This document shows, piece by piece, positions 9,848 to 37,838 of a stretch of 57,346 bases of DNA. Both the position numbers and the translations under genes were made by a program. The stretch is from Candidatus Woesearchaeota archaeon (GTDB lineage Archaea; Nanobdellota; Nanobdellia; Pacearchaeales; GW2011-AR1): the NCBI GenBank assembly GCA_964601675.1, contig CAZROF010000001.1:1-57346 (forward strand), given 5' to 3'. The notes beneath the pieces are model-generated. The model had not been told where the DNA came from, searched no databases, and was given only the letters and a program-made list of their open reading frames with translations. Within the stretch, counting starts at the first letter, position 1. Each line of letters opens with the position of its first letter.

Positions 9848-9894
9848 TTTTTCATATCCAAAACATTTAAATATAGAACCAACATTTATAATTC

Positions 9895-10368: not shown

Positions 10369-10411
10369 TTTTTGTCCAAAACTTCTTAAATTGATTTATC
10401 TAAGATATTTT

Positions 10412-22968: not shown

Positions 22969-22989
22969 GGGATAGTGAAATAAAAGAAT

Positions 22990-23000
22990 TATTTAAATGT
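22990..23000 (-). promoter_or_regulatory. TATA-like box (aaacatttaaataa on minus strand) for the KaiC-like gene
   Basis: It lies about 25-30 nt upstream of the ATG at 22968 and immediately outside the transposon end. Confidence 0.4.
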
Positions 23001-23003
23001 TTA

Positions 23004-23012
23004 CTAATACGT
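23004..23012 (+). repeat. left target-site duplication ctaatacgt
   Basis: An identical 9-mer in direct orientation sits at 35441-35449. Each copy abuts one terminal inverted repeat. Confidence 0.75.
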
Positions 23013-23029
23013 GGCTTTGTTTAATAAGT
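23013..23029 (+). repeat. left terminal inverted repeat ggctttgtttaataagt
   Basis: Exact reverse complement of 35424-35440. Confidence 0.8.
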
Positions 23030-23048
23030 CCAAATAACAACTTACTTT

Positions 23049-24308
23049 TTAAACAGAAATTTCTCTTGTATGTTCAAGACTAAATTCTGCTTTTACCCCC
23101 AACTCTTTTATTTCTTGAATAACAACACAAACATTATGACATAAAACTTTAATCAACATCTCATTAAATTGTGCTATTTGTTTTTTGCTTCTTATATCTC
23201 CTCTAAATTTTGTTTTAATCATATGAAATACTGTTTCTGAATTAGACCTTTTATGATAATGTTCTAAAAAATCCTCATGTTTATACATAAAATAATGATA
23301 CATCTTTTTCCAAACAGAAGATTTACCTCTTTTACCTGTAACATTTTTCTTAAATGGAATAAAAGGAACTCCGCCAACTTCTTTAATAACTTTAAGGTTG
23401 GCTTTACTACTATATGCTTTATCCCCCGAAACTTCTGAAATTCCAAAATTCTCGGCTGTTTTATGAACTAATCCCTTTAATTGTGGGCTATCATTTTCTT
23501 GCCCTTCTGTTATCTTAACTCCTGTAATAATATTAGTTTTAACTCCACTTATCAAATGGGCTTTAATCCAAACCTTGTATTTCCTTTCCTTTCCCCACTT
23601 ATAATCAAACCAACGAGCATATCTTGAAGTAGAAAAACCTGAACTATCAATTGCAAAATCCTTTTCTATTTCTTTAAGAGGTAGGGAACTAATTGTTATT
23701 AGATTTTCTAAAATTGTTTTAACTTCTCCCTTATTCATAAAATTAGATAATGAAGAATAACAAGGAACCTTATCAACTAATCCGTAATCGTGTGCAATTT
23801 TCATATCAGACATAAATCTTCTTAATGAAAATCCTGTATAAACCTTCATTACAGAACCAAAAAGCATATCTGAAAAAGGTAAAGTTGGCCGACCAAATTT
23901 ATATTCAGGTTGTTCAATATTCTCGCATAAATCTTTTAACAACTTCATAAAAATTAACTTCTCATTTGTTTGAAATTTATTATAAGCAGACCATTTTTGA
24001 GTATAAGAAACTTTTACTCCATTTGTTTCTATGATTTTCCCTTCTTCGTCTATTTGTCTTTTAATATAAAATTCTACTGCGTAAATATGCTTACATTTAG
24101 ATTTTCTTAAAGTGCAATCAGGACAATTGCATTTTGGTTCGTGTCCGTTAAAACTTACTTTATATGCTTTAAAAGATGTTTGAGAGCCAACTATCCAATA
24201 ATTATTATGCTTTCTTAATCGTCCAGATTGAAAGATTAACTTACCTCTCTCTTCTCGGTTAAGTTTTCTTATATCTGTTGTTTGTGTTTGATTATTTACT
24301 TTTATCAT
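23049..24308 (-). CDS. DDE transposase, IS4/IS5 superfamily, with N-terminal SWIM zinc finger
   Basis: SWIM finger CNCPDCTLRKSKCKHIYA. DDE candidates are DSSGF, GDKAY and SNSETVF. There is an exact Y-x2-R-x3-E-x6-K signature (YHKRSNSETVFHMIK). Confidence 0.85.
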   Translation of the reverse strand: MIKVNNQTQTTDIRKLNREERGKLIFQSGRLRKHNNYWIVGSQTSFKAYKVSFNGHEPKCNCPDCTLRKSKCKHIYAVEFYIKRQIDEEGKIIETNGVKVSYTQKWSAYNKFQTNEKLIFMKLLKDLCENIEQPEYKFGRPTLPFSDMLFGSVMKVYTGFSLRRFMSDMKIAHDYGLVDKVPCYSSLSNFMNKGEVKTILENLITISSLPLKEIEKDFAIDSSGFSTSRYARWFDYKWGKERKYKVWIKAHLISGVKTNIITGVKITEGQENDSPQLKGLVHKTAENFGISEVSGDKAYSSKANLKVIKEVGGVPFIPFKKNVTGKRGKSSVWKKMYHYFMYKHEDFLEHYHKRSNSETVFHMIKTKFRGDIRSKKQIAQFNEMLIKVLCHNVCVVIQEIKELGVKAEFSLEHTREISV

Positions 24309-24489
24309 CTTACTTATATAGGTAATAACTACTATATAAATCTTTCTATTTCTTACTGATATAAGTAAATAGTATATAATTACCGACGATAAAATAATAC
24401 TTATATTCTTGAGTTTTATATAATTAACTAATATTAACTATGTTTTTATAAACAATAATTATATAAAGTAGTTAAACTTAAATAAATTT

Positions 24490-24675
24490 ATGAGTAACAA
24501 AGAAAAGTATAAAATTAAAAAAGTGGTAAATGCTTTTAAGTGTTTAAGGTGCGGACATGAATGGATACCCCGCGTGGAATTATCACAACTTGAAGGTGAA
24601 TTAAAAGAAAAGCCCAGAATCTGCCCAAAATGTAAGTCTGCTTATTGGGATTTAGAACCTAAAACCAAAAAGTAA
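24490..24675 (+). CDS. small zinc-ribbon protein (61 aa)
   Basis: CLRCGHEW ... CPKCKS (two CxxC knuckles) with basic termini. Confidence 0.5.
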   Translation: MSNKEKYKIKKVVNAFKCLRCGHEWIPRVELSQLEGELKEKPRICPKCKSAYWDLEPKTKK

Positions 24676-24717
24676 TGGGGTTTGAAAGCCGACTCTTCAT
24701 TTTGGAAAAATAGAAAA

Positions 24718-25280
24718 TTATTTATTTAACTCAATCAACCTAATTGTACTTTCTCTCACCACTCTTGCTACTTCCCTAAACTCATCATAAGTTAATACCC
24801 ATTGATTACTTACATCAGGATATTCTTCACCCATTAGATTAATAATTTTTGGATGATAATCTGAACCGTTATATATATCTCTAACCCTCCTTAAATTTGA
24901 ATCTCCAATACAAGCGATTATTCCTCCCCCATCAACTGCATGTGTTTGAGTGGGATAATCTACAAATTCTAAATCTAATTCAGCAAGATATCTGTCCCTA
25001 TTCGCTCTCTCCTTTATGAGAAATTTTTCTAATATTCCTCTAGGATTTGTTTCAAAATTATCCACCTCCTTTGTAGACAAAATATCTCGTTCATAGGCAT
25101 CACTGAAAAATTGTTTTAAGTATTTAGCTAGTTGATTTCCATCAGATCTTGTTATCACATCAACCATAGTTCCAGTTGAAAATAGCGTATACTCTTGATT
25201 TTTGCTAATCTGGCCACAGCTAACGCTACTGGGCTTTTCCCATTATTTGCTGTACATACAAATTCTATCCTTTTTACCAT
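24718..25280 (-). pseudogene. LMW protein-tyrosine-phosphatase/ArsC-like gene, frameshifted; P-loop CX5K instead of CX5R
   Basis: The 41-aa ORF at 25155-25280 reads MVKRIEFVCTANNGKSPVALAVARLAK.. (LMW-PTP P-loop V-C-x-x-N-x-x-[R>K]-S-P). The 149-aa ORF (24718-25167) continues the fold in another frame (ITRSDG.., IIACIGDSN.., PDVSNQW..YDEFREV). A 1-nt indel in the A5 run (T5 on the plus strand, 25199-25203) would fuse them. Confidence 0.5.
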
Positions 25281-25357
25281 ATTACTACTAAATAGTTACA
25301 AGATATAAATCTTTGCATTTTACAAATATTAAAAAACTTGATTTTCGTATTGAGATT

Positions 25358-25984
25358 ATGATAAAAGTAAAAATTTGTGGAATACATTCTAGCAATGAAG
25401 CAAAAAAGGCTATTGAATATGGGGCCGATTTTTTAGGATTACTTATAGATATTCCTGAAACTAATTTAAGTTTAAATCCAATCGAAGCTAAAAAAATTAT
25501 ATCTTATAATCATAAAGGAAAATTTATTATACTTACTATAGAAATGAAGTCCAGAAAATTATTATCTTTGGTTAATGAGATTTCGCCTTGGGGGATTCAA
25601 CTTTTAAGACCAACAAGTGAAAATGTAAATTTTCTTTCAAAAAATAGTGAAGTAAAGATAATACCTGTGGTTCACATAACTAACAAAAGAGATATTAATC
25701 AAATTGAATCATATAATAATGCCGATTATATCCTATTAGATTCTAGGTTTGGCAATCATCTTGGAGGAACGGGTAAAGTTCATGATTGGAACATAAGTAA
25801 AAAAATTGTAAAAAATACCAATATACCCATAATATTGGCAGGAGGTTTGAATAAATCAAATATTAAAGAAGCTATTAGTAAAGTTAAACCATATGCCGTA
25901 GATGTTGAATCTTCCCTTAGGAACAACATAGGTTTTAGAGACTTCTTAAAAATTAAAAAGTTCATAGATAAAGCAAAAAATTAA
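25358..25984 (+). CDS. trpF: phosphoribosylanthranilate isomerase (TrpF)-family protein
   Basis: MIKVKICGI..GADFLGLL..IQLL..ILLDS..GGTGKVHDW..ILAGGLNKSNIKEAI..PYAVDVESS..FIDKAK tracks T. maritima TrpF almost motif for motif. The catalytic Cys (KICG) and Asp (LLD) are present. The start is taken at the ATG 25358. Confidence 0.8.
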   Translation: MIKVKICGIHSSNEAKKAIEYGADFLGLLIDIPETNLSLNPIEAKKIISYNHKGKFIILTIEMKSRKLLSLVNEISPWGIQLLRPTSENVNFLSKNSEVKIIPVVHITNKRDINQIESYNNADYILLDSRFGNHLGGTGKVHDWNISKKIVKNTNIPIILAGGLNKSNIKEAISKVKPYAVDVESSLRNNIGFRDFLKIKKFIDKAKN

Positions 25985-27069
25985 TCAAAATCTTTTGAAA
26001 AAGGGCCAAACACCTTATTCTTCAATAACCAGCTCCAATGTACTCTTGGAGATTCTTTTATCTTCAATTTTCCAAATGGAATTTCAAAAACTTGAGGCAT
26101 ATTATATTCATTAACTTTTTCTTCAATAGGATCATAGTATAATATTTTTGGAATACAAATATTTCTTTTATCTTTATTACTCGCAAGAATTAACGGACAT
26201 TGTATTTCTTGTCCTCTAACATAGAGGAATTTTTTCCATTTTTCTACATCATTAAAAGGAATCATAGAAGGAATAAAAACAATATCTATATCTTTATTAG
26301 CCAAATAATGGGAAATTCTCGGATTCAATAAATCATAACAGATTATAACTGCCACTTTTATTCCTTTATGCTCAATTATTTTTGGGAATCTTCCTTTTTT
26401 CATTATTTTTTTTTCGTTAGCAAAGGCTGTAGACTTACTTATTTGAATTGGACTTTTTTTCATAAAATATGTTTCAGGTCCCTGATTACCATATTTGCCA
26501 AATATTGTCCCTTCTGGAAATCCTTTTGGATTAAAGTTCATTCTTGAGAATGGATATGATTCCGGAAATAAGTATAAATCGGATTTGTTTTTTGAAATAA
26601 TTTTTTTTGAAATATTAACATCTTCCCTAGAATTGATGACATTTCCACAAAAGGCCGAAACTTTTAGAATCTCTAAACCTCTAAATTTTTCTTCAATAGT
26701 TGCATTAATTTCTCCGGAAACAATATATTTTCTACTATTGAAAGTCTTTTCAATCAGTTTTCGTTTGGTTTTTTTGTTTTTGAAAATTTTTCCAAAAGGG
26801 ATGTGAGGATTTTTACTTGTCCAATTCAGAACTAATTCATTTTTCATAGTCTTATTCTTTGCAAAACATAAAACATACGGGCCCAGTATAAATGCTATTT
26901 CTCTATAGAAATAATTTCTAAACTCTTCTTGTTTTAATACAACAAATTTTGAACTTTTGAATAGATTAAATATTTCATAAGTGGTTGATAAGTTCACTTT
27001 CTTTAAAAGTCTTGAATACCATTTTTCATTTTTCATTTGAGTTAATTTCAACAAGACCATCTTTACCAT
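25981..27069 (-). CDS. carbon-nitrogen hydrolase (nitrilase superfamily)-like protein with about 180-aa N-terminal extension
   Basis: Candidate E-K-C triad: DLYLFPESY (Glu), YFMKKSP (Lys) and VAVIICYDL (Cys). An alternative start at 27036 would reduce the overlap with the upstream gene. Confidence 0.55.
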   Translation of the reverse strand: MVKMVLLKLTQMKNEKWYSRLLKKVNLSTTYEIFNLFKSSKFVVLKQEEFRNYFYREIAFILGPYVLCFAKNKTMKNELVLNWTSKNPHIPFGKIFKNKKTKRKLIEKTFNSRKYIVSGEINATIEEKFRGLEILKVSAFCGNVINSREDVNISKKIISKNKSDLYLFPESYPFSRMNFNPKGFPEGTIFGKYGNQGPETYFMKKSPIQISKSTAFANEKKIMKKGRFPKIIEHKGIKVAVIICYDLLNPRISHYLANKDIDIVFIPSMIPFNDVEKWKKFLYVRGQEIQCPLILASNKDKRNICIPKILYYDPIEEKVNEYNMPQVFEIPFGKLKIKESPRVHWSWLLKNKVFGPFSKDFD

Positions 27070-27346
27070 TAATCTTGACCTTCATACCATCAGAAACTGT
27101 ATCTAATAACTCTTTTATTCCAACAATACATGGTTTTTTAATCTCTCTACAAAATATTGAAGCATGAGATAACAATCCTCCGTATTCTGTAAGAACTGCT
27201 CCAACATTCAACATTTCAGCACTCATTTCGGGAGATGTGGATGTAGCTACAAGAATATCATTTTCATTAAATTCTTTCTCTTTTGAAAAAATCTTGATAG
27301 TTCCCTCAAATTCCCCTTCAGAAGCAGGAATGCCTTTGAGTATCAT
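27026..27346 (-). CDS. stand-alone PEP-utilising-enzyme mobile (phosphohistidine swivel) domain protein
   Basis: GIPASEG...ILVATSTSPE...AVLTEYGGLLSHASIFCREIKKPCIVG is the classic swivel domain with the phospho-His (SH). Confidence 0.8.
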   Translation of the reverse strand: MILKGIPASEGEFEGTIKIFSKEKEFNENDILVATSTSPEMSAEMLNVGAVLTEYGGLLSHASIFCREIKKPCIVGIKELLDTVSDGMKVKINGKDGLVEINSNEK

Positions 27347-28242
27347 TTATGGCCTCCTAAAATATGATATATTCCTTGACTAAGTTTGTCTTCTGGAATC
27401 TCGCATGTTTTCATATAAAATTTAACTATTTCTTCGGGGAAAGGTGTTTTAAGAAATCCTTTTTGTGCTTCTGGAACACTAAAATCAAAAGCATTAAAAA
27501 TTTGGTTAATAACATATTTTCTATTAAATTCTTTAGAATTTTTTAATTCATTAATTTTATTTTTAACTTCTTCAAATAAAATATCCAATTCTCCTCCAAT
27601 TGTTTCCCCCCCCTCAATAAATACCTGGGACTGATCAAGATTTTCTGGTTCAATAATATGTTCAAAAAAATCGATTTTCATATCTTGTTTTGGAGATATA
27701 ATAATTATTTTTTTGTTTAAAGCTAATCTATGATAGTAACGATAAACGCTGTTGTCATCAAAAAATAATTGTACTCCATTAGATCTAAAAATAGGATTAA
27801 CCATTTCTGTTAAGTTATCGAGTAAAAATACTAATTTTTTTACATCTACTTTTTTTGAATTAGCATCCAAATCCCATTCAGGCATCCATGATTTGGAAGT
27901 ATAATCATCAAGATAATTTTCTTTTTTAAATAGCATAATTTTCGATAAGATTCCCATTAAAAGATCTTTATGATTCTCTTCTCCCATCATTTCCTTTGCT
28001 TTTTCATTTAAAAAATAAAAAACTAATCCTGAAAGTTTTCCAGGCATTAATCCTTTTTCAAATAAGCTTTTAGGATCATTTTTCCAACCCATTAAATTTT
28101 TACCCACTTCTGGAATTAAAAATGGACCCGAATAATACATAGCTTCAACTGAGTTTATTGGCCATTGTGATAAAACATCTGATTCATGTTGTACCTTTGC
28201 TACATCCCTAGAGATGTTTTTCAATATTCTATTTATTTCCAT
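27343..28242 (-). CDS. hypothetical protein; possible substrate-binding middle module of a split PEP-synthase-like kinase
   Basis: No motif recognised. Its stop overlaps the start of the swivel-domain gene (ATGA). Confidence 0.35.
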   Translation of the reverse strand: MEINRILKNISRDVAKVQHESDVLSQWPINSVEAMYYSGPFLIPEVGKNLMGWKNDPKSLFEKGLMPGKLSGLVFYFLNEKAKEMMGEENHKDLLMGILSKIMLFKKENYLDDYTSKSWMPEWDLDANSKKVDVKKLVFLLDNLTEMVNPIFRSNGVQLFFDDNSVYRYYHRLALNKKIIIISPKQDMKIDFFEHIIEPENLDQSQVFIEGGETIGGELDILFEEVKNKINELKNSKEFNRKYVINQIFNAFDFSVPEAQKGFLKTPFPEEIVKFYMKTCEIPEDKLSQGIYHILGGHK

Positions 28243-28258
28243 AAAATGAAAAACCGAG

Positions 28259-28942
28259 TTATATTTTTAAAGTTTTTGATTTGTTAATTTTTCCAGCTAG
28301 AATCCAATGAGCACTTTTTACATTATATCTACCAATTGGTGCAATAATTTTCTCTCCAATCAATAAATTATCTAATCTAAAAAAACTTTCAGCTTCTTTT
28401 TTACCCCAATATTCTATCACAATATCTCTCTTTCCGGGTTTATCTTGTAAATAAGTATTTTTTCTCACTTCTTTTCCTACCCTATATCTAGAATCATTTT
28501 TTGATCTAAGGGAAAATATAATCCATGCACCATTTTTTGATACTCTTATAATTTCTTCAATAGTTTTTTCTTGATCTTTTTGGGAGAGGTAATGAAAAAT
28601 ACCCCAAAGAATAACAACATCAAATGAATTATCATTATGGGGTATATTGGTAGAACTAGCCAACTTTATTTCTGAATTAACATTCCACTTTTTTAAGAAC
28701 TTTTTAGATGTTGATACTGCCTAGTTTGAACTATCGATTCCAAAGGTAATACATCCCTCATAATCAAACATCAATAAATGCCTTCCAGCCCCACACCCAA
28801 TATCAAGAACCTTTTTGCCTTTAAGATTTCCTAGATACTTTTCAGAAAAAGTAAATATTTCTTCAGATGGCCAGTATATGTATTTTGAACTTTTCTTATA
28901 GAATTTATTCCAGATTTCTTTATTGTTTTCTGATTTCTTCAT
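28259..28942 (-). pseudogene. class I SAM-dependent methyltransferase interrupted by one in-frame TAG (28721-28723)
   Basis: The N-terminal ORF ends ..VLDIGCGAGRHLL..GIDSSN-TAG. The same frame continues with no other stop: AVSTSKKFLKKWNVNSEIKLASS..NSFDVVILWGIFHYL (post-I/II motifs). Confidence 0.6.
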
Positions 28943-28993
28943 AAGGAAATTAGGTTTAGAAAGTTTTTAAAATATACTTTCCTCTTAATTATT

Positions 28994-30085
28994 ATGGAAA
29001 TAATAAAAAAAATGAACAATTTAGTTGAGGGAGATAAGATTAAATCTATTGAAGATTGGAAAAAGATAAGCATTAGTACTAAAAAAGATCTATCAGAATC
29101 GATAGTTCCTAAAAATTTCCTTGAATTAAGGATTACAAGTGGATCTACAGGAAAACCTCTTTATGTTTTTTATTCTAATAAAGCCGTAGAAGGGTTTATT
29201 AATCGAACAAGAAAATCAATAAAATTATCTGGAGTATCAAATAAAGATATTGTTTTGAATCTTTTTGCGTATGGAAATTATGTTCCTGGAAGTATGTATG
29301 AAAGGGCTTGCTTATTGGAAGGGATATCAATATTACCCCTCGGGGCCCCAAATACTTATCCAAAAGAAAAAATTATGGAAGTTATTTTAAAGGTGAAACC
29401 AACAGTGTGGTTTTCGGTGCCAAGCTATGCTTTAGGTTTGTTAGAAGTTCTTAATAAAATTAATCCGAAAATTATGCCAAAAAAAATACTTGTTGCAGGA
29501 GAAATGTTATTAAATTCATATATATTAAGATTTAAAGAATTAGGAGTAGAAGTCATTAATCATTTTGGTTTAACAGAATGTCCTGCCATTGGAGTTTCTA
29601 AAAAAGGAGATCCAAAATTGATAAAAGTAATTAATGAGGGGATATATGTGGAGGCAGTAGAGATAAATAAAAATTTAGAATTAGTAATAACTGATTTAAA
29701 TAATAGTTCTACAAAAATAGTGCGTTATAATACAAAAGATGTCTTAGAAAAGATTAAATATACTAGTAATGGTTCAATAAGCGAATTTTCTATTACTGGG
29801 AGAGATGATGATTTAATAAAATTACAAGGGATGCTTACATCAAAAATAAAAATAGAAGATGCATTATCAAAATATACTAATGAGTTTATTGTTAATTTTA
29901 GAACAAAAGAGAATAGCGATTATGTTGAATTTATTCTTCCTTCTGAATTTAAGAATAAAGAAGATGATATCATGAAAGAACTCTCATTTATTTTTGCTAA
30001 GAAAGAATTTATCTTTCAAAATAAAATTGAAGTCCCTAAAACAAGTTCTCACAAATTAAGACATATTGTCGACCTAAGAAAATGA
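28994..30085 (+). CDS. adenylate-forming enzyme, PaaK / coenzyme F390 synthetase / CapK-like
   Basis: ITSGSTGKP, NHFGLTEC, YNTKDV, GRDDDLIKLQG and a C-terminal ..SSHKLRH (ANL core motifs in a short, roughly 360-aa format). Confidence 0.7.
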   Translation: MEIIKKMNNLVEGDKIKSIEDWKKISISTKKDLSESIVPKNFLELRITSGSTGKPLYVFYSNKAVEGFINRTRKSIKLSGVSNKDIVLNLFAYGNYVPGSMYERACLLEGISILPLGAPNTYPKEKIMEVILKVKPTVWFSVPSYALGLLEVLNKINPKIMPKKILVAGEMLLNSYILRFKELGVEVINHFGLTECPAIGVSKKGDPKLIKVINEGIYVEAVEINKNLELVITDLNNSSTKIVRYNTKDVLEKIKYTSNGSISEFSITGRDDDLIKLQGMLTSKIKIEDALSKYTNEFIVNFRTKENSDYVEFILPSEFKNKEDDIMKELSFIFAKKEFIFQNKIEVPKTSSHKLRHIVDLRK

Positions 30086-31641
30086 GAGACAAAATTCTCA
30101 TTATTGGTGCATCTAGTAAGGTTGCTCAATCTATTTCAGAAATGTTAACTAATTATGGCTTTGAATTGATTGGCACTTATAATAAAAAATATCCTCAAAA
30201 TCCTGAGTGTTATAAAAAATTAAAAAAAATTAATTTTGTAATTAATGAAGATATAAATAAACTTGATAAATTAAAAAATATTTCAGACATTATATTTACA
30301 ATAGGAAAAGCAGAATTTTTAAATGAAGAAGCTTCCAAAATTAATTATAAGGCATTGGAAAATTTAGTTAGTTATTTGAAAAAGAAAAAGAAAAATATTA
30401 GAATAATATTTTGTTCGTCATCAGCAGTATATGGAAATAACAAATCCAAAATTATCTTCGAAAATTCGAACAAAATTCCTACTAGTTATTATGGAAATTA
30501 TAAATTAAAAGCAGAAAATATTTTAAAAAAGTCATATATAGATTTTGTTATAGTTAGATTTCCAATTATATTTGGATTATATTTTAAAAAAAAATTCAAT
30601 AGATTTATCGAAGCAATAAAAGATGATAAAGCTACAATGTTTGGTGATGGGAGTAATAATTTTTCTTTTATTCATCAAAATGATCTATCAAATTTTATTA
30701 TGAAAATTATTGAAAATATAGAAATTAAAAATGAAGATTTTAATATTGCTTCTGGATTTACATCACAAAAAGATTATCTAAATCTGGTTGTAAATATATT
30801 TAATAAAAAAATAAAAAAATCTGCGACTTTAAAAGAATTATTCAGAATTGCTCAAAAACAGCAGAAAGGATATAACAAATCAAATAAGAAACCTTCCCTT
30901 TTAAAAGAAGACGTAATAAGTTTATCAAGAGATCGTATATATAGTATTGATAAAGCAAAAAAATATGTTTCTTGGAAACCAAAATATACAATTAATAAAT
31001 CAGTTGGTGATACCTTCAAAGAAAATATGTTGTTATCAAGATGGGATGGGATTAAAATTTTAAAATATTTATATCCAGACAAATTGCTACCAGTAAAAAT
31101 ATACAGGAATCCATCAGAATTTAATCCAAATCAGTTTATGAAAAAGAAAGAAGAGATTTGGAGCATAACTATAAGGGATGAAGAAGGAGATATAATTAAT
31201 ACCGACCACTTATTTTCAAGAGACTCTAATAACATAAAAAAATTTATGATTAACAATAAGAAGCCAAATAAAGTATATATTGTTAGATTAAGTCCTCCAA
31301 GAGATGATATTTTATACTATGGCTCTTTTTTGATTGATAAAAATAATTTTAAGAATAAAGTGATTATTACAATATCAAAGAATCCTGAAGAACTATTTGT
31401 TATGAGAGAAGAAGGGAAATCACTTAAACTTCTTCCAAGAGATTATGTTCCAGACTACAATCTCATCTATGAAGGGGGAAAAGTTGAGGGAGAATTTCCA
31501 AAAAAGTATACAAAAATTCTTGAGAAAGATATTGAAAAATTATCTCATCTATTGAAAAAAACAAAAAGAGAAGATTTAACAATACCTGTTCTTTTTATAA
31601 TAAGTAAAAAAGGTGTTCAGTATATAAGTTTAGGACTATGA
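30082..31641 (+). CDS. NAD-dependent epimerase/dehydratase (extended SDR) fused to an about 200-aa uncharacterised C-terminal domain
   Basis: ILIIGASSKVAQS (Rossmann), SSSAVYG and YGNYK (YxxxK). I recognise no motif in the C-terminal half. Confidence 0.6.
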   Translation: MRDKILIIGASSKVAQSISEMLTNYGFELIGTYNKKYPQNPECYKKLKKINFVINEDINKLDKLKNISDIIFTIGKAEFLNEEASKINYKALENLVSYLKKKKKNIRIIFCSSSAVYGNNKSKIIFENSNKIPTSYYGNYKLKAENILKKSYIDFVIVRFPIIFGLYFKKKFNRFIEAIKDDKATMFGDGSNNFSFIHQNDLSNFIMKIIENIEIKNEDFNIASGFTSQKDYLNLVVNIFNKKIKKSATLKELFRIAQKQQKGYNKSNKKPSLLKEDVISLSRDRIYSIDKAKKYVSWKPKYTINKSVGDTFKENMLLSRWDGIKILKYLYPDKLLPVKIYRNPSEFNPNQFMKKKEEIWSITIRDEEGDIINTDHLFSRDSNNIKKFMINNKKPNKVYIVRLSPPRDDILYYGSFLIDKNNFKNKVIITISKNPEELFVMREEGKSLKLLPRDYVPDYNLIYEGGKVEGEFPKKYTKILEKDIEKLSHLLKKTKREDLTIPVLFIISKKGVQYISLGL

Positions 31642-32762
31642 TAAAACAAATTAAAAACAAATTAAAAAAGGTAATAAAAAGAGAAAAAGAAACCTCCTTA
31701 CTTAGAATTGGAATTCCTCAACCTCCGGCTCCACAAAATTATTTTCAAAAAGAAATAAAACAATTATTAAAATTAAACCCAAATAATATAGGCACTACTA
31801 CGAGAATGAAGTTTTCTCAAGATAGTTGTAGAGAACTTGAAAATAAGGCGATAAAAAAGATCTCTAAGTGGTTCCATGGTTCTAATCTGGATGGGTACAT
31901 TAATAGTGGTTCTACTGAGGGGAATATTATGGCATTATGGATAGGAAGAGAATATCTTAAGAAGAAGGGCAAACCCCTAATTATTTCTCATAATGAGAGT
32001 CATTATTCTTTAGATAAAGCGGCAAGACTGCTTGATTTAAAAATAATAAAAACAAAAGCTAAATTTTGGAACAAACCCCTTGATAAAAATCAGCTTAAGG
32101 AAGCAACAAAAAATATAAAATCTCCTTTAATTATAGTTGGAACCTTAGGCCATACTTCAACTGGAACAATAGATAATATAGAATCAATAACAGAATTTAT
32201 CAAAGAATATAAAAAACCGTGTTTTTTGCATCTTGATGCTGCTGTTGGAGGATTTTTTATCCCATTTTTAAGTCAAAATAAATATTCAGACTTTGGAAAT
32301 TCTTTTGTTAAATCATTAACCTTTGATTATCATAAATATGGTTTCCTTTATTACTCTTCAGGAATTTTTTTGTGTAGAAATGGTCTGCAAGATAATATTG
32401 GTAGTGACACTGAATATATTAAAATTTTTGACGACACCCTTATAGGTTCAAGATCTGGAATATTGCCTGCAATTATTTGGGCAAATACAGAATATTTAGC
32501 CAAAAAGGGATTTAAGAAAAGAGCAATGAAAATTATCTCAAATAAAAATAAATTTATTAAAAGATTAAATGAAAAAAATATCAAATATATTGAAACCCCT
32601 TCTATGCCAATGGTTTGTATAATTTTAAAGAAAAGGCTCCCGAAATACATGGAAATAAAATTTAGAATCCACTCCCTAAAAAGAAAAGAAGGTTATACTT
32701 ATACAATTTATTTTTATCCAAAATATCTTAAAAGTTACGAAGAATTATTAAAAATTATATAA
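31638..32762 (+). CDS. PLP-dependent group II decarboxylase (MfnA-like Tyr/Asp decarboxylase family)
   Basis: SGSTEGNIMAL, HLDAAVGGFFIPF and SLTFDYHKYGF (PLP-Lys in HK). Confidence 0.7.
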   Translation: MIKQIKNKLKKVIKREKETSLLRIGIPQPPAPQNYFQKEIKQLLKLNPNNIGTTTRMKFSQDSCRELENKAIKKISKWFHGSNLDGYINSGSTEGNIMALWIGREYLKKKGKPLIISHNESHYSLDKAARLLDLKIIKTKAKFWNKPLDKNQLKEATKNIKSPLIIVGTLGHTSTGTIDNIESITEFIKEYKKPCFLHLDAAVGGFFIPFLSQNKYSDFGNSFVKSLTFDYHKYGFLYYSSGIFLCRNGLQDNIGSDTEYIKIFDDTLIGSRSGILPAIIWANTEYLAKKGFKKRAMKIISNKNKFIKRLNEKNIKYIETPSMPMVCIILKKRLPKYMEIKFRIHSLKRKEGYTYTIYFYPKYLKSYEELLKII

Positions 32763-33827
32763 GATTGAATAACCTTTATTATTTGGTTTAGCCGTAAATG
32801 TAATCATCTTTTTATCTTTTAAAATTTTTTCTATCTTCATTGGATCTTTTGTTAGAATATATATTGCAGGTCCACAAGATGAAACAGAGATTATAGGGGT
32901 TATCTCATTCCTATATTTCATTAGCGATTTTACTAGAGAATATAATCCTTTCCATGTTCTTGAATCTATTACTAAACTTCCAGTATTAAATCTATAATAT
33001 TGCAATATGTCCCCAATAGATTTCATGTTTTTATTCATTATCGAAGGAATAAGTTCATGTAAAACCTTCCAAGCAATCTCTTTTGAGAAATCTTTACTTG
33101 ATTTTAACATTTTTGGAAATTGAGCTTTTTCGATTGCCATTAAACATTGAGCATCACATTTTTTATACATCTTGGGTATCCCAAAAACAAATGTATAATC
33201 TTCAGGAAATTTTTCTTTGAAAATTATATTTGATTCTCCTACAATTATCTGCATCCCCCCACCATATAGGGCTACAGAAGGAGAACCACCATTGCATTGG
33301 ACATGAATTAACCTTTCGTCATCTGATTCAATTTCTTCCCCATGATTTTGTGCAATAAACAAAGTTAATTGTCTTGGGTTTATTGGCTTTCCATATGCTT
33401 CATTTATTGCTATACAAACGGCACTTATTAACGAAGAGGAAGATCCTAGACCAGCGTGGGGGTAATCATATACATTATTTGCTTCAATTAAAAGCGAATC
33501 TTTTATTTTTAGAGCATTTTTCATCATTAATGCTGCATGTTTTACTATTGATTTTCTTTTTGTTTTTCTAGATAATGTAACAGATTTTTCTTTATTTTTT
33601 ATGATTTCTATTTTAGCATAAGTGTTCACATTAACTGAAAATGCAAGTTCACCCGCATTATAAACAAATTTTTTCTTTGGTTTCGTTAGGGTTTTTAAAT
33701 CAAAGCACATTGTATTCAATCGTGCTGGAACAATGACCTTTATTTTTTTATGTCTAATAACAGGAATATTTATTTTCCCTTTAATTGGGTTAAATATTTT
33801 TCCTGCTTTAAATATCTCTAATCTCAT
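32748..33827 (-). CDS. GHMP-kinase-superfamily protein of the archaeal COG1907 / beta-RFAP-synthase-like type
   Basis: The GHMP motif is PHAGLGSSSSLISAV. The N-terminus IVPARLNTMCFDL resembles the psRLHf.liDl start of the beta-RFAP-synthase group rather than the PGK..L.GEH start of true kinases. Confidence 0.55.
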   Translation of the reverse strand: MRLEIFKAGKIFNPIKGKINIPVIRHKKIKVIVPARLNTMCFDLKTLTKPKKKFVYNAGELAFSVNVNTYAKIEIIKNKEKSVTLSRKTKRKSIVKHAALMMKNALKIKDSLLIEANNVYDYPHAGLGSSSSLISAVCIAINEAYGKPINPRQLTLFIAQNHGEEIESDDERLIHVQCNGGSPSVALYGGGMQIIVGESNIIFKEKFPEDYTFVFGIPKMYKKCDAQCLMAIEKAQFPKMLKSSKDFSKEIAWKVLHELIPSIMNKNMKSIGDILQYYRFNTGSLVIDSRTWKGLYSLVKSLMKYRNEITPIISVSSCGPAIYILTKDPMKIEKILKDKKMITFTAKPNNKGYSILYNF

Positions 33828-33857
33828 AACAATGATAACACAAACAGATTTAAAAAG

Positions 33858-34802
33858 TTAATCCACTAAAGTTGTAATTGGTCTACTCTGAAGAATATAA
33901 AATTTATCCTTCCTTTTTGCCCATTCAATATCTACAGGGAATTTATAATGCTCTTCAATCATTTTTACTAATTTGCCCAATATTACAATTTCTTTTTTTG
34001 TCAAAACTTGATTTTCTCCTTTTTTCTTTAATTGCTTCCATTTATTTTCTCCCTTCTTATTTTTAAATAATCCCTTTACTTTATTATTGATGTTTATATC
34101 TAAGATTCTCCAGTCAGTCTTATCTAAAATATAACTATCTGGAGTGATCTCTCCAGAAACAATCGCCTCTCCCAATCCAAAACATGCTTCAATAACTAAT
34201 TGGTTTTTATCTTTTGTGATTGGATGGACAGAAAAAGCAACTCCAGATTCACTGCTATCTATCATTTTTTGAATAACTACTGCTACGGATATTTTTTCTT
34301 CTTTTAATTTTTTTTCAAGACGATATATTAATGCTCTTGGAGTGAACAGCGAGGCCCAACATTTTTTAATATTCATTATTAGGTTTTCTTTTGAAGTGTT
34401 AAGATAAGTATTTAACTGTCCTGCCCATGCTGCATTAGCACCATCTTCTGAAGTCGCCGAGCTCCTAACAGCAACATATTCTGATTTTAATTTACTATGA
34501 GACTTTATAATTTCATCTTTAATCTTTTTAGGAATATTCTTAGAAATAATTGCAAAATTTATTCTTTCTGAAGCCTTATTTATGCTATTAATCTCTTTTA
34601 GATTTATAGAATCTAATTCCGAGTCAATCTCTATTGATACATCGGTTTCTTTAATAAATTCTTCAAATGCATTTGAGAGTATAACAAATCCTCCAGGTAA
34701 TTCTATATTTGAATTAATTAACTCTCCTAATGAAGCACCCTTGCCCCCTGCTATTTCAACATCGTTTTTATTAATCGAATTTAAATTTCTCACATATCTC
34801 AT
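33858..34802 (-). CDS. stand-alone PPDK_N (PEP/pyruvate-binding ATP-grasp) domain protein
   Basis: GGKGASLGEL, VAVRSSATSEDGANAAWAGQ.NTYLN and VDIEWA..KFYILQSRPIT match the PEP synthase / PPDK N-terminal nucleotide-binding domain. Confidence 0.8.
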   Translation of the reverse strand: MRYVRNLNSINKNDVEIAGGKGASLGELINSNIELPGGFVILSNAFEEFIKETDVSIEIDSELDSINLKEINSINKASERINFAIISKNIPKKIKDEIIKSHSKLKSEYVAVRSSATSEDGANAAWAGQLNTYLNTSKENLIMNIKKCWASLFTPRALIYRLEKKLKEEKISVAVVIQKMIDSSESGVAFSVHPITKDKNQLVIEACFGLGEAIVSGEITPDSYILDKTDWRILDININNKVKGLFKNKKGENKWKQLKKKGENQVLTKKEIVILGKLVKMIEEHYKFPVDIEWAKRKDKFYILQSRPITTLVD

Positions 34803-34883
34803 GTTTTTAATAACAAATATAACATTATAAATTTATTTAATTATAAAAGAAAATCTTTTAAGGCTAAAAAGTTATTTATTAAT

Positions 34884-35363
34884 ATGAAATTTATAGTAGA
34901 TTTTAAGGGAAGGATTTCAGATAATGAATGGCATGATAACACAAACTTTAAAAATTTGGATAATGTAACACAAGTTTATGCATTTATATTTAATAAACAA
35001 GGGAAAGTTTGTTTGATTAAATATAAGGGTAGGTGGGGAATTCCAGGAGGGACACCTGAAAAAGAAGATAAATCTTTTGAAGATACTCTCAAAAGGGAAG
35101 TACAAGAAGAGGCAGATTTAAAAATAAAAAATATAAAAAGAGTTGGTTATATAAAAGTCATACCAAGGGATGGATCAAAGATTCATTATTTATTAAGATA
35201 TACGGCTTTTGTAGATAAAATTAATAATCAAACCGAAGATCCTGCAATCGGGGAGATTTTAGAGAGAAAATTTATTGATCCAAAGGAAATTTGTAAATAT
35301 ATTGGTTGGGGCAACTGTGAATTTCAATTGAATAAAGCTATTAAGGTTTATAATAACTTCTAA
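34884..35363 (+). CDS. NUDIX hydrolase
   Basis: Nudix box GGTPEKEDKSFEDTLKREVQEEADL (Gx5Ex7REUxEExGU). Confidence 0.85.
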   Translation: MKFIVDFKGRISDNEWHDNTNFKNLDNVTQVYAFIFNKQGKVCLIKYKGRWGIPGGTPEKEDKSFEDTLKREVQEEADLKIKNIKRVGYIKVIPRDGSKIHYLLRYTAFVDKINNQTEDPAIGEILERKFIDPKEICKYIGWGNCEFQLNKAIKVYNNF

Positions 35364-35423
35364 GATTCCTTTCTTCATTTTTAGAAGATATCTTAAGAAG
35401 GAGGGACTATTTAAACAACCACT

Positions 35424-35440
35424 ACTTATTAAACAAAGCC
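35424..35440 (+). repeat. right terminal inverted repeat acttattaaacaaagcc
   Basis: Exact reverse complement of 23013-23029. Confidence 0.8.
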
Positions 35441-35449
35441 CTAATACGT
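35441..35449 (+). repeat. right target-site duplication ctaatacgt
   Basis: Identical direct copy of 23004-23012. Confidence 0.75.
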
Positions 35450-35462
35450 AGAAAGAACTTTC

Positions 35463-36083
35463 CTAAAAAAAACTTTGATTTATTTCCGCTTTTAAAAATG
35501 GTAGTTCTTTTTCCATACGAACAACCTTACTAGCAGAACTATCATATTTTCCATCACAACGAGAAGTCGCATCCCAACAATCAGCTATGGCTAAATATTT
35601 AGAATCAGGATGTAATCCATCCAAACTTAAAGTAGGATAAGAGTCTTTCCCCTTATGTCTATGGTGATCTCTTACTAAATGTGCATAATCTTCACTAAAT
35701 CCAGCCTTTCTCAGCATACTAGCAGATTTTTCCGGATGAGATTTCATAACCCCATGTTCCCAAGCCTCAAATTTACCAGGGTTGAGTAAAACCCTTCTCT
35801 GAATTTCCAATTTTCCAATATCGTGAGTAATTCCCGCAAAATACATTTTTTTAGCATTTAATCCAAAGCGTCCACTTATTTTAAGAGAGTGCTGGGCAAC
35901 ATTTAATGAATGTATATAAAGAGCAGGACAAGCTTCCTTTATTTTTTTGAGAGCCATAAAACTAAACTCACGCATCTTATTATCGAATCCCAATTTATTA
36001 AATATAACATTCAATCTATCTGAATCGATACTCGTATTATCAACCAAATTTTTATTTAACACGTTATTACTTAGCAATGACAT
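35463..36083 (-). CDS. stand-alone HD-GYP-like phosphohydrolase domain protein
   Basis: GITHDIGKLE (HD) and DHHRHKGKDSYP (compare HHE..DG.GYP). Confidence 0.6.
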   Translation of the reverse strand: MSLLSNNVLNKNLVDNTSIDSDRLNVIFNKLGFDNKMREFSFMALKKIKEACPALYIHSLNVAQHSLKISGRFGLNAKKMYFAGITHDIGKLEIQRRVLLNPGKFEAWEHGVMKSHPEKSASMLRKAGFSEDYAHLVRDHHRHKGKDSYPTLSLDGLHPDSKYLAIADCWDATSRCDGKYDSSASKVVRMEKELPFLKAEINQSFF

Positions 36084-36110
36084 GTTAATAAACCTTTCGC
36101 CTCAGCAAAC

Positions 36111-36120
36111 TTTTATAAAT
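36111..36120 (+). promoter_or_regulatory. TATA-like box ttttataaat upstream of thrS
   Basis: It ends 20 nt before the ATG at 36141. Confidence 0.4.
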
Positions 36121-36140
36121 TCTCAAATTCTTCCTTTTAT

Positions 36141-37838
36141 ATGAAAACCTTAAACTTGCACTGCGATTACATAAAATTCAAAACACTAAAAAAAGCAATA
36201 AAAACAATCGACGAAATTGCACCAAACCAAATACAAGAAGGAGAAGTAGAAGAATGCTTAGTTGTAATGACAGCGGTGGAAAAAGCAGATTCAAAAAAGT
36301 CAGTTTCGCAGCTAGTAGAATCAATCAAAAAAATCGCAGCTGATGTGAAAACTGAAAACATAGTTCTTTATCCTTATGCGCATTTATCTTCCAATCTTAG
36401 TTCACCAGAAACAGCAATCAGAATATTAAACGAAACAGCAAAACAACTATCTCCCCTAAAAGTAACTCAAGCACCATTTGGATATTACAAATCTTTCGAA
36501 TTAAAGGTTAAGGGACATCCTTTATCTGAATTGTCTAGAGAATTTAAGACTGAAGGGGATGAGGAAGTCACAGATATATCTGAAGATCAAAGAAAGAAGT
36601 TATTAAACACAATATCAAAAGCAAAACTTGACACATCTAAATTAGCAGAAAATGATCATAGGATAATAGGATCTAAGATGAACCTATGGAGTTTTAACAA
36701 TGTAGCTCCCGGAATGGTCTTCTGGCACCCAAAAGGACTTCATATTAGAAACAAGCTAATCGAATATTGGAAAGAGCTCCACAGAAAAGACTATGAAGAA
36801 ATATTAACCCCACAAATCATGGATAGAAAACTCTGGGAAGTTTCTGGACATTGGTCAAAATTTGGAGAAAATAACTTTAAAACAACTTATGAAAACAGAG
36901 ACTTCTTAGTCAAACCAATGAACTGTCCAGGCGGAATGCTAGTCTATAAAACATCCCCAAAAACATACAAAGACCTACCATTAAGAGTAGGAGAACTGGG
37001 AACGTTACATAGAATTGAATTATCAGGGACACTAGGCGGACTCTTTAGGGTAATCCAATTCACACAAGATGACGCTCACATATTTTGCACAGAGGATCAA
37101 TTAGAAGACGAAGTAGCAGGAGTAATAGACCTAATCCATAAAACCTTCAATCAATTCGGACTAGAATTTGATCATGTAGAACTCTCAACTAGACCAGAAA
37201 AAAGAGTAGGTGCAGAAGAAACATGGGATTTAGCAGAAGTGGCACTAGAAAAAATTCTGAAAAAATCGGGAATGAAATATGTAATTAATGAAGGAGATGG
37301 AGCATTTTACGGACCAAAAATAGACTTTCATCTAAAAGACTCCCTCCAGAGAACATGGCAATGCTCCACAATCCAACTCGACATGGCACTACCAGAAAGA
37401 TTCGACCTCCAGTATCAAGACAAAGAAAACAATAATCAAAAACCAATTATGTTACATAGAGTAATCTATGGTTCACTTGAAAGATTCATAGGAATAATAA
37501 CAGAACATTTTAACGGAAAATTCCCACTCTGGCTTTCTCCAAACCAAATTAAAATCATGACTCTAAACGACGACTCAAAAGATTACGCTAAAAAAATATC
37601 AGATAATCTATTTAAAGAAGGATTTGAGGTAGAATTAAATGATAAATCAGAATCAATGGGAAAGAAAGCAAGAAAAGCACAGATTCAAAGATTCAATTAT
37701 CTTGTGACAGTCGGAGAGCAAGAGATGAAAGAGAATAAAATAGCTGTTAGGAAAAGGGATTCAAAAGAAATCACAACAATGACATTAGAGAAATTCAAAG
37801 AAAAAATAAAACAAGAAATATCTCAGAAACAATTATAA
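36141..37838 (+). CDS. thrS: threonyl-tRNA synthetase with archaeal N-terminal editing domain
   Basis: A class II core (FWHPKG, MNCPG, RVGELGTLHR.E.SG.L.GLFRV..FTQDDAHIF, GAFYGPKID) is preceded by an archaeal-type editing domain (LHCDYIKF..VVMTAVEK..YPYAHLS). Confidence 0.9.
   Translation: MKTLNLHCDYIKFKTLKKAIKTIDEIAPNQIQEGEVEECLVVMTAVEKADSKKSVSQLVESIKKIAADVKTENIVLYPYAHLSSNLSSPETAIRILNETAKQLSPLKVTQAPFGYYKSFELKVKGHPLSELSREFKTEGDEEVTDISEDQRKKLLNTISKAKLDTSKLAENDHRIIGSKMNLWSFNNVAPGMVFWHPKGLHIRNKLIEYWKELHRKDYEEILTPQIMDRKLWEVSGHWSKFGENNFKTTYENRDFLVKPMNCPGGMLVYKTSPKTYKDLPLRVGELGTLHRIELSGTLGGLFRVIQFTQDDAHIFCTEDQLEDEVAGVIDLIHKTFNQFGLEFDHVELSTRPEKRVGAEETWDLAEVALEKILKKSGMKYVINEGDGAFYGPKIDFHLKDSLQRTWQCSTIQLDMALPERFDLQYQDKENNNQKPIMLHRVIYGSLERFIGIITEHFNGKFPLWLSPNQIKIMTLNDDSKDYAKKISDNLFKEGFEVELNDKSESMGKKARKAQIQRFNYLVTVGEQEMKENKIAVRKRDSKEITTMTLEKFKEKIKQEISQKQL

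Follow-up and report, generated by a model that had tools for sequence, protein, structure and literature searches.

What is a cluster of eleven tightly packed, biosynthesis-like genes doing in a woesearchaeotal archaeon? DPANN archaea and bacteria of the Candidate Phyla Radiation (CPR) are thought of as biosynthetically minimal, and the question is posed by positions 25358 to 35363 of a 57,346-nt stretch of DNA from Candidatus Woesearchaeota archaeon (contig CAZROF010000001.1), hereafter the window, whose numbering is used throughout. The answer towards which we lean is that the cluster is a functional multi-enzyme operon, maintained by selection, which makes or tailors a small molecule and moves as the cargo of an IS903-like transposon. 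What is new is the combination of enzymes and the architecture of a predicted three-component dikinase; the constituent enzyme superfamilies are known. The window's proteins were mapped onto fetched contigs, and the relatives' contigs and proteins carry the labels L001 to L023 and P0018. The genes of the cluster are these:

25358..25984, plus strand: TrpF-like phosphoribosyl-arylamine (Amadori) isomerase; Pfam PRAI, 2e-24, full profile
25981..27069, minus strand: two-domain protein, an N-domain (residues ~1-130) followed by a CN-hydrolase amidase (~131-362); Pfam CN_hydrolase, 7e-6, on the C-terminal two-thirds
27026..27346, minus strand: free-standing phospho-histidine swivel protein of 106 aa; Pfam PEP-utilizers, 7e-21
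27343..28242, minus strand: 299-aa novel-fold protein, putative substrate-binding subunit of a dikinase, assigned by linkage to the swivel gene
28259..28942, minus strand: S-adenosylmethionine (SAM) methyltransferase, a nonsense mutant; Methyltransf_11/25 on the C-terminal part
28994..30085, plus strand: PaaK-like adenylate-forming ligase of 363 aa; AMP-binding 1e-12, PaaK models 5e-22
30082..31641, plus strand: extended short-chain dehydrogenase/reductase (SDR) of the epimerase/dehydratase/reductase type with a C-terminal domain; Pfam Epimerase, 6e-21
31638..32762, plus strand: group II pyridoxal phosphate (PLP)-dependent amino-acid decarboxylase; Pyridoxal_deC 6e-18, H232-K233 invariant
32748..33827, minus strand: divergent GHMP-superfamily protein, COG1907/beta-RFAP-synthase-like or a kinase; GHMP_kinases_N, 3e-7
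33858..34802, minus strand: stand-alone PPDK_N ATP-grasp nucleotide-binding subunit; Pfam PPDK_N, 1e-92
34884..35363, plus strand: Nudix hydrolase; NUDIX 7e-14, Nudix-box E72, E75 and E76 invariant

These eleven open reading frames (ORFs) lie on both strands with near-zero intergenic space and overlap their neighbours by 4-44 nt at junctions; the start/stop overlaps indicate translational coupling. An earlier reading of the same DNA, made from the sequence alone and called here the sequence-only reading, had described this packing at the same positions, and its family-level calls have all proved correct by Pfam, NCBIfam or structure prediction. Nine genes form the core, namely those for the PPDK_N protein, the GHMP protein, the PLP decarboxylase, the SDR fusion, the PaaK-like ligase, the 299-aa protein, the swivel, the CN-hydrolase protein and TrpF. 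The GHMP gene faces one way, the decarboxylase, SDR-fusion and ligase genes face the other, the 299-aa, swivel and CN-hydrolase genes again run in the GHMP direction, and TrpF is opposed to them, with PPDK_N close by. This order is kept in the window and in L005, L006, L007, L016, L003, L020 and L021, and a gene set of identical order is found on at least eight independent contigs, archaeal and bacterial. L005 (Pacearchaeota UBA92), L006 and L007 (both Woesearchaeota) belong to archaeal metagenome-assembled genomes, at 73-91% identity to the window. L003/L010 and L021 are bacterial, as judged from the label "bacterium" for the former and, for the latter, from a cluster adjoining mraZ, mraW, a penicillin-binding protein gene and a Mur ligase gene. 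Together with L020 they show 42-65% protein identity to the window. The bacterial versions carry two extra phosphatases, an LMWPc protein and a His_Phos_1 protein that in L003 is closest to the CobC-like alpha-ribazole-5'-phosphate phosphatase (2e-29); L020 also holds a phosphoribosyltransferase-like ORF. On L001/L009, a 985-kb contig labelled "archaeon", the core is present without the SDR fusion and without PPDK_N. The sequence-only reading had named a lack of co-localisation in all other genomes as grounds for refutation; co-localisation is in fact a conserved property of the cluster.

The alternative of an accidental neighbourhood, or of decaying cargo without joint function, deserves to be weighed at this point. 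The methyltransferase gene is a nonsense mutant in both the window and L005, a low-molecular-weight (LMW) phosphatase gene is truncated, and on the 516-kb contig L002/L008 of an uncultured bacterium (9695-11106) what is left of a decayed cluster is the swivel gene, the gene for the 299-aa protein and 55 codons of the PLP decarboxylase gene. However, order and orientation persist across domains at 42-65% protein identity, the start/stop overlaps imply translational coupling, and the catalytic residues are all intact and invariant across orthologues. Ratios of nonsynonymous to synonymous substitution (dN/dS) against three orthologous copies fall between 0.05 and 0.28 for every gene, so that all are under purifying selection. 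A chance assemblage is hardly credible in this light and has already been largely refuted. The families are rare, with about 20-40 members each in 5.8 billion proteins and a sporadic distribution, and a metagenome scan yielded only five further short loci. An operon that is selected, mobilised by a transposon and shared by two domains suggests a specialised metabolite or modification of importance to DPANN and CPR organisms.

No description of the cluster came out of literature searches that covered this combination of enzymes, or TrpF together with CPR/DPANN, and the earlier judgement that it matches no described pathway has held against Pfam, NCBIfam, PADLOC and the literature searched. PADLOC gave generic PLP-fold and Nudix matches and nothing defence-like, and a defence system was set aside. 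The Rfam search of the window found no RNA families; scans for sigma-70 promoters and terminators stayed at or below shuffle expectation, with models that are ill-suited to archaea.

How the cluster moves can be read from its boundaries:

23004..23012, no strand: left 9-bp target-site duplication CTAATACGT, identical to the 9-mer at 35441-35449
23013..23029, plus strand: left terminal inverted repeat GGCTTTGTTTAATAAGT, with a perfect inverted copy at 35424-35440
23049..24308, minus strand: IS5-family DDE transposase of 419 aa with an N-terminal SWIM zinc finger; Pfam DDE_Tnp_1 3e-23, SWIM 1e-3
35424..35440, minus strand: right terminal inverted repeat, a perfect inverted copy of the left 17-bp repeat
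35441..35449, no strand: right 9-bp target-site duplication CTAATACGT

The unit transposon so delimited spans 23013-35440, or 12,428 bp, between perfect 17-bp repeats; it holds 12 passenger ORFs, and the transposase is its sole mobility gene. BLASTN of L005 against the window gave a single block of ~12.5 kb at 90% identity (window 22986-35451) and no homology on either side of it. The L005 element has the same 17-bp repeats at both ends and a different flanking 9-mer duplication, TATTAGGCA. The same repeats with distinct 9-bp duplications at two sites mean that the 12,428-bp element has transposed as a unit, and the cluster is thus the cargo of a proven unit transposon. The carriage by a transposon that the sequence-only reading had proposed is in this way documented in two genomes. 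L006 and L016 each retain one terminal repeat before the contig ends.

The affiliation of the element is with IS903, of the insertion sequence (IS) family IS5. Its transposase, with a dN/dS of 0.12, matches NCBIfam NF033579 (transpos_IS5_2) at 4e-38 and 131.5 bits, just under the cut-off of 140. IS903B has the inverted repeat GGCTTTGTTGAATAAATC and generates 9-bp direct repeats (PMC10569121); GGCTTTGTTTAATAAGT is identical to that repeat at 15/17 positions. With IS903 and with passenger-carrying IS derivatives ("tIS") the element shares a DDE_Tnp_1 transposase of the IS5 family, the 9-bp duplication and nearly the same ends. It differs from IS903 in its length of 12.4 kb, its 12 passenger ORFs, its SWIM-extended 419-aa transposase and its DPANN-type archaeal hosts. 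The resemblance of the ends to those of an enterobacterial IS could reflect deep cross-domain conservation of IS ends or be a sign of recent bacterial origin. GC content is 0.25-0.29 within the element and 0.31-0.38 in the flanks. The insertion point is intergenic, between a gene for a KaiC-like ATPase and an HD-domain gene (flanking stretches 21973-22968 and 35463-37838), and no host gene was disrupted; the HD gene is followed by that for a threonyl-tRNA synthetase with the archaea-specific editing domain, as befits an archaeal host. Between the window and L006 (13943-15028) the transposase shows a dS of 0.66 and 85% nucleotide identity, and the cargo is more diverged (dS 0.75-2.0, 72-81%); relative to L005, the transposase is among the most diverged genes. 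These comparisons suggest a mosaic history, in which elements may have recombined or the transposase module may have been replaced. The element is of interest in its own right as a clean case of an archaeal, IS-derived transposon with cargo: terminal repeats, target duplications and two insertion sites are all documented, and the ends come close to those of IS903.

Within the cargo, three genes argue for a dikinase. The sequence-only reading had spoken of a PEP-synthase-like phosphotransferase split into three genes, and the split is real. In the models for RPH (rifampin phosphotransferase), PigC/RedH and PEP synthase, residues 1-313 are matched by the PPDK_N protein and the C-terminal 100 residues by the swivel protein. 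The swivel motif TEYGGLLSH, whose His61 is invariant in 13 orthologues, fits the T/SxxGGxxxH motif shared by RPH and the two-component phenol-type dikinases HpeHI, CreHI and PpsAB (PMC12167813). The gene for the 299-aa protein lies directly upstream of the swivel gene with a 4-nt overlap (ATGA); in P0018, and only there, the two proteins are naturally fused in frame, and distant relatives of the 299-aa protein are again followed by a swivel gene (L023). In dikinases of the RPH/HpeHI type a single chain carries the substrate-binding domain and, immediately after it, the swivel (PMC12167813). From the model alignments, the swivel motif, and the adjacency and fusion of the 299-aa and swivel genes we conclude that the three proteins probably constitute a three-component small-molecule dikinase; their genetic linkage is plain, and the chemistry and acceptor are predicted. 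Where the present system comprises three proteins, RPH is a single chain and HpeHI, CreHI and PpsAB (phenylphosphate synthase) are two-component enzymes (PMC12167813; PMC4844700). What all have in common is a PPDK_N module, the histidine swivel motif and a third, substrate-specific part N-terminal to the swivel, and a separate ATP-grasp protein is possible in the known dikinases too. By analogy with these relatives the reaction would be ATP + substrate -> AMP + Pi + phospho-substrate.

Neither Pfam nor NCBIfam, even at permissive thresholds, has a match for the 299-aa protein, and its AlphaFold2 (AF2) model, with a mean pLDDT (the model's own confidence score) of 90, found no significant fold match in a Foldseek search of the PDB, RPH structures included (best E 0.35); the profile and structure searches that the sequence-only reading had recommended for 27343-28242 thus place it in no family and on no PDB fold. 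Its substrate partner role would be filled by 299 aa as against roughly 450 aa in the RPH/HpeHI/PpsAB relatives. There are 23 relatives in 5.8 billion proteins, and 26 representatives came from an exhaustive HMM search of 1.84 billion, each standing alone at a length of 280-305 aa. We regard the protein as a putative specificity subunit of a new fold type, a view that depends on the predicted model. If so, small-molecule dikinases would be extended from one- and two-component to three-component form.

Two further observations touch on the dikinase. L013 (6936-15504) represents a third cluster type, in which a split dikinase occurs with the same PaaK-like ligase family; its genes encode a PPDK_N protein, a methyltransferase, a swivel, a 252-aa protein, the PaaK-like ligase, a GT28 glycosyltransferase, an unknown protein, a radical-SAM/SPASM protein and a CN-hydrolase. 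The 252-aa protein is a weak relative of the 299-aa family; the profile match is faint and takes in the DFF(E/N)H motif. A mycobacterial "sugar epimerase family protein" of 854 aa, NCBIfam PRK05865, has an SDR at its N-terminus and a swivel at its C-terminus, an independent hint of a functional link between SDR and swivel phosphotransfer.

Its dikinase relatives raise the possibility that the cluster is a module for resistance, detoxification or catabolism, in which the dikinase would inactivate a xenobiotic or antibiotic by phosphorylating it, as RPH does, or would start the catabolism of a phenolic, as PpsAB and HpeHI do, with the ligase, amidase and decarboxylase processing an aromatic compound. 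The characterised dikinases do serve resistance (RPH) or phenol catabolism (PpsAB, CreHI, HpeHI), the PaaK family is catabolic, and transposon carriage is typical of resistance cargo. The present setting, in contrast, is a biosynthesis-like operon: ring-reducing and ring-cleaving enzymes, carboxylases and transporters are absent, the nine core genes include typically anabolic members (TrpF, the GHMP/PRPP-type protein, the SDR and the PLP decarboxylase), and the substrate subunit shows no relation to the fold of the RIF-binding and HpeH domains. We therefore consider such a role quite improbable.

The second functional group joins an amidase and an adenylating enzyme. The two-domain protein probably starts at M12, at 27036. 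Its AF2 model (pLDDT 89) matches CJ1056C, a Nesterenkonia amidase, N-carbamoylputrescine amidohydrolase and Nit proteins (Foldseek, 1e-11), and the tetrad E170, K212, E219 and C244 is invariant in 23 sequences at canonical spacing. A nitrilase-superfamily alpha-beta-beta-alpha fold is confirmed for the C-terminal domain at the level of the model. The N-terminal 130 residues, one of the regions that the sequence-only reading had singled out for study, prove to be a separate beta-rich domain with an invariant Cys68. Free-standing proteins of 135-142 aa in L011 and L012 (Paceibacterota) share 45-48% identity with this domain, and their genes lie immediately upstream of PaaK-like ligase genes, an adjacency that marks it as a module travelling with this ligase family. 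The ligase itself matches PaaK structures in the PDB at 8e-19, and its core motifs TSGSTG, E195, D249 and K354 are invariant. It scores 77-78 bits against PaaK equivalog models with cut-offs of 646-700 and is ~70 aa shorter than PaaK. All 39 members of the family are from CPR or DPANN organisms, and some occur in other natural-product-like clusters (L013, L014).

It is tempting to speculate that N-domain, ligase and hydrolase act together, either in an acyl relay or in a glutamine-dependent amidation like that of NadE. Glutamine-dependent NAD+ synthetase (NadE) likewise links a CN-hydrolase domain genetically with an enzyme that forms adenylates; where NadE has an N-type ATP pyrophosphatase, the cluster has an adenylating enzyme of the ANL/PaaK type, and any likeness to the glutaminase and ammonia channel of NadE is speculative. 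In L011 (8746-13524) and L012 (9561-14393) the N-domain homologue and ligase belong to a cassette with ThiF, a ~350-aa unknown protein and an Acg-type flavin mononucleotide (FMN) nitroreductase, the ThiF and nitroreductase genes together amounting to a split Rv1355c-family protein; the L011 cassette lies near a C39 peptidase and an ABC exporter.

The remaining core genes suggest sugar-phosphate chemistry. The TrpF protein scores 86.6 bits against Pfam PRAI (gathering score 22.7) over positions 1-192 of 193. Cys7 (KICG) and Asp128 (LLDS), which we take to correspond to Cys7 and Asp126 of the Thermotoga maritima enzyme, are invariant in 10 orthologues. With the TrpF of the tryptophan pathway it shares the full-length PRAI barrel, the catalytic pair of Cys and Asp, and two motifs that bind phosphate, GGTG and one at the C-terminus. 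However, it stands alone, always beside the CN-hydrolase fusion protein and phosphatases, and none of the loci examined has any of the trpA to trpE genes. It would thus offer a natural case of TrpF working outside tryptophan synthesis.

The GHMP protein finds its best NCBIfam models in beta-RFAP synthase (1e-13 and 6e-11); a single-sequence search of the PDB returned no match. The loop PH[SA]GLGSS is invariant, as is Arg36 in the VPxRLN motif of the N-terminal strand. In ForT a tight turn H-x-G-x-G-S, His99 to Ser104, binds the pyrophosphate of phosphoribosyl pyrophosphate (PRPP) (PMC8183095). The GHMP fold is common to this protein and to the enzymes of the COG1907 branch, namely beta-RFAP/RHP synthase and the C-glycoside synthases ForT and PyfQ (PMC8183095, PMC6787355), which the H-x-G-x-G-S loop with its invariant His and the N-terminal Arg (PxRLN) also appear to recall. 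The likeness of the loop to that of ForT is drawn from the published description of ForT, and use of PRPP by the present protein is putative.

The PLP decarboxylase matches the histidine decarboxylase and MfnA models of NCBIfam at 1e-47, below cut-off, and in the PDB MfnA (1e-26) and serine decarboxylase (1e-23). The SDR part of the fusion comprises residues 1-310, with S113, Y137 and K141 invariant. The C-terminal domain of ~200 aa (residues 312-519, window 31012-31641) is conserved and bears the invariant motifs WSxTIRD, NTxHLF, VRxSP...YYGS and LPRD; like the 299-aa protein, this half of 30082-31641 had been marked out for searching, and it has no Pfam match and no significant PDB sequence match. 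A resemblance to the JAK2 SH2-like region around "VR.SP" (E 0.5) was treated as noise, and a comparison with PPDK_N was negative.

These four proteins lend themselves to yet another explanation, namely that a cofactor or cofactor-like building block needed by reduced organisms is made or salvaged, such as an arylamine-ribityl unit of the methanopterin/riboflavin type or a ribotide resembling a lower ligand. A COG1907-like GHMP protein, TrpF and an SDR could run from ribosyl through ribulosyl to ribityl, a CobC-like phosphatase and an MfnA-like decarboxylase are present, and phenol phosphorylation has its counterpart in methanopterin arylamine synthesis. There a GHMP-type PRPP:4-hydroxybenzoate synthase acts before the phenol is phosphorylated and then aminated (White 2011, via PMC3261824); the route pairs a COG1907-type enzyme with a phenol kinase and so sets a chemical precedent for the cluster. 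A needed cofactor, however, would be commoner than the sporadic distribution and rarity of these families allow, the cluster is borne on a transposon, the GHMP protein lies under the cut-offs for RFAP synthase, and there are no pterin, flavin or corrin genes nearby. We rate this explanation as improbable. The link to methanopterin or methanofuran building blocks drawn in the sequence-only reading has likewise not been borne out, pterin and furan genes being absent.

The SDR also invites comparison with the decoration of surface or S-layer glycans by phosphate, phosphoramidate or amide groups, as in the O-methyl phosphoramidate (MeOPN) and glucuronamide routes of Campylobacter. In such a scheme the dikinase might activate an amide or hydroxyl, the decarboxylase supply an amino-alcohol or amine, the ligase form a sugar-acid amide and the SDR act on a nucleotide sugar. 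The extended SDR is indeed of a type that epimerises or dehydrates nucleotide sugars, serine decarboxylases are among the relatives of the PLP decarboxylase, the bacterial versions have phosphatases, and the related cluster L013 includes a GT28 glycosyltransferase. The dikinase has a PPDK-like kinase in the same class as Cj1418, the L-glutamine kinase. As in the MeOPN cluster of C. jejuni (Cj1415-Cj1418 and methyltransferases), a PPDK-like kinase, an amide hydrolase and a methyltransferase are encoded together. The steps of the MeOPN route are summarised in 10.1101/2024.11.05.622173. Here, in contrast, cytidylyltransferase, 3'-kinase and glycan machinery are missing; the core loci have no nucleotidyltransferase, glycosyltransferase, flippase or polymerase. 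The window element, L003, L020 and L021 contain no Cj1416-type nucleotidyltransferase or APS-kinase-like gene, and L001, whose cluster adjoins a kinase gene of the AAA_17/18/33 type, the only extra kinase-like gene, has no nucleotidyltransferase. The amide hydrolase is a CN-hydrolase and so of another superfamily than Cj1417, which is like the class-I glutamine amidotransferases. TrpF and the GHMP protein would have no role, and they, the PaaK-like ligase and the PLP decarboxylase are extra relative to MeOPN. The cluster, moreover, is portable cargo found in unrelated contexts. Glycan decoration is in our opinion unlikely, and the MeOPN-like hypothesis of the sequence-only reading fails on its defining features, as no locus has a cytidylyltransferase, a Cj1415-type kinase, a class-I amidotransferase or a glycosyltransferase.

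We return to the reading of the cluster as a selected operon for a small molecule. Families, catalytic residues, conservation of the operon, selection, transposition and linkage of the dikinase genes are matters of observation; the substrates, the order of steps and the product given here are our proposal. Our best guess for the product is a phosphorylated metabolite derived from PRPP and an amine. One could envision the PPDK_N protein binding ATP and passing the beta-phosphate to His61 of the swivel with release of AMP and Pi; the phospho-swivel would then dock on the 299-aa protein holding the acceptor, a hydroxyl of which would be phosphorylated. For PpsAB, CreHI and HpeHI, the characterised relatives with a split enzyme, that hydroxyl is a phenolic one (PMC12167813). 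The PLP decarboxylase would produce a primary amine from an amino acid, the PaaK-like ligase would adenylate a carboxylic acid, and ligase and two-domain protein (through Cys68 and Cys244) might make, amidate or remodel an amide. The GHMP protein would couple PRPP to the aryl or amine moiety, or phosphorylate that moiety, and TrpF would carry out the Amadori rearrangement of an N-substituted 5-phosphoribosylamine to a 1-amino-1-deoxyribulose-5-phosphate. The SDR could reduce or epimerise the sugar part, the Nudix hydrolase could trim phosphates, a role that the CobC-like and LMW phosphatases might fill in bacteria, and the accessory methyltransferase, broken in this copy, would decorate the product. 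TrpF, the GHMP loop, the CobC-like phosphatase, the phosphoribosyltransferase-like ORF of L020 and the SDR all fit a sequence from PRPP adduct through Amadori rearrangement and reduction to dephosphorylation. The hypothesis of the sequence-only reading in which PRPP and an arylamine are joined and the adduct rearranged by TrpF survives as the most coherent chemistry, on the circumstantial grounds of the TrpF residues, the ForT-like loop and the CobC-like phosphatase; its weak point is the GHMP protein, which lies under every beta-RFAP cut-off. All eleven genes are small and should lend themselves to expression and assay.

A bolder version can be offered only tentatively, and we think it rather doubtful. 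The three-part dikinase, with its specificity subunit of new fold, and the ribosyl chemistry of the COG1907-like protein, TrpF and SDR would together yield a new class of aryl/amine-pentitol(phosphate) compounds, exchanged between DPANN and CPR organisms on the IS903-like transposon and perhaps put to episymbiotic use. On this equally uncertain scheme the dikinase would activate a hydroxyl, possibly phenolic, of an amide derived from an amino acid, and a PRPP-derived ribosyl group would become a ribulosyl or ribityl phosphate.

Several findings weigh against the operon as we picture it. At 122 bits the TrpF protein stays under the NCBIfam equivalog cut-offs (at least 172; 215 for the best score). 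The GHMP protein, at 42.1 and 51.0 bits, is far under those of its models (TIGR00144 113.5; NF040726 328), and its profile matches in the PDB are weak, with homoserine kinase (3e-4) ahead of mevalonate diphosphate decarboxylase and ForT (0.1). The ForT match covers the C-terminal region only, with no residue-level alignment, and the protein may simply be a kinase. In L001 the core has no PPDK_N or SDR fusion within 10 kb. The acceptor-binding role of the 299-aa protein is putative and derives from linkage, Pfam, NCBIfam and Foldseek having detected no likeness to the substrate domain of HpeH or the RIF-binding domain. Quite different clusters (L011-L014) also contain the PaaK-like ligase and the N-domain, which are therefore generic tools. 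Lastly, the copy in the window has a nonsense mutation in its methyltransferase gene, and its LMW phosphatase is without a P-loop.

The sequence-only reading had missed both the nonsense mutation and the nature of the ORF upstream of the cluster, which is a truncated cluster member. The methyltransferase gene has an in-frame TAG at 28721-28723, where orthologues have Glu74. The L005/L015 copy, 90% identical (L005 9301-9990), has a different nonsense mutation, Trp24 to stop (W24*), and the gene is intact in L006, L007 and L016. Its dN/dS of 0.09-0.15 is low, which implies that the nonsense hits are recent and independent, or else assembly errors. Recoding of the TAG was considered and rejected, as orthologues have GAA or GAG (Glu) at this codon and the nonsense codon of L005 is elsewhere. 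The upstream ORF is the following:

24718..25167, minus strand: 149-aa LMW-phosphatase-like ORF without the catalytic CX5R loop; aligns with LMWPc of other cluster versions

It corresponds to the C-terminal three-quarters of the cluster's LMW phosphatase (in L007, 11400-11966), and LMWPc proteins elsewhere in cluster versions keep CX5RS. The leader, which reaches 25320 in the window, is a degenerate in-frame sequence with stop codons; selenocysteine or other recoding was discarded as an explanation, L007 having three stops there. The 149-aa ORF nevertheless has a dN/dS of 0.24-0.28 and is still constrained, and the phosphatase-dead LMW domain may have kept a function.

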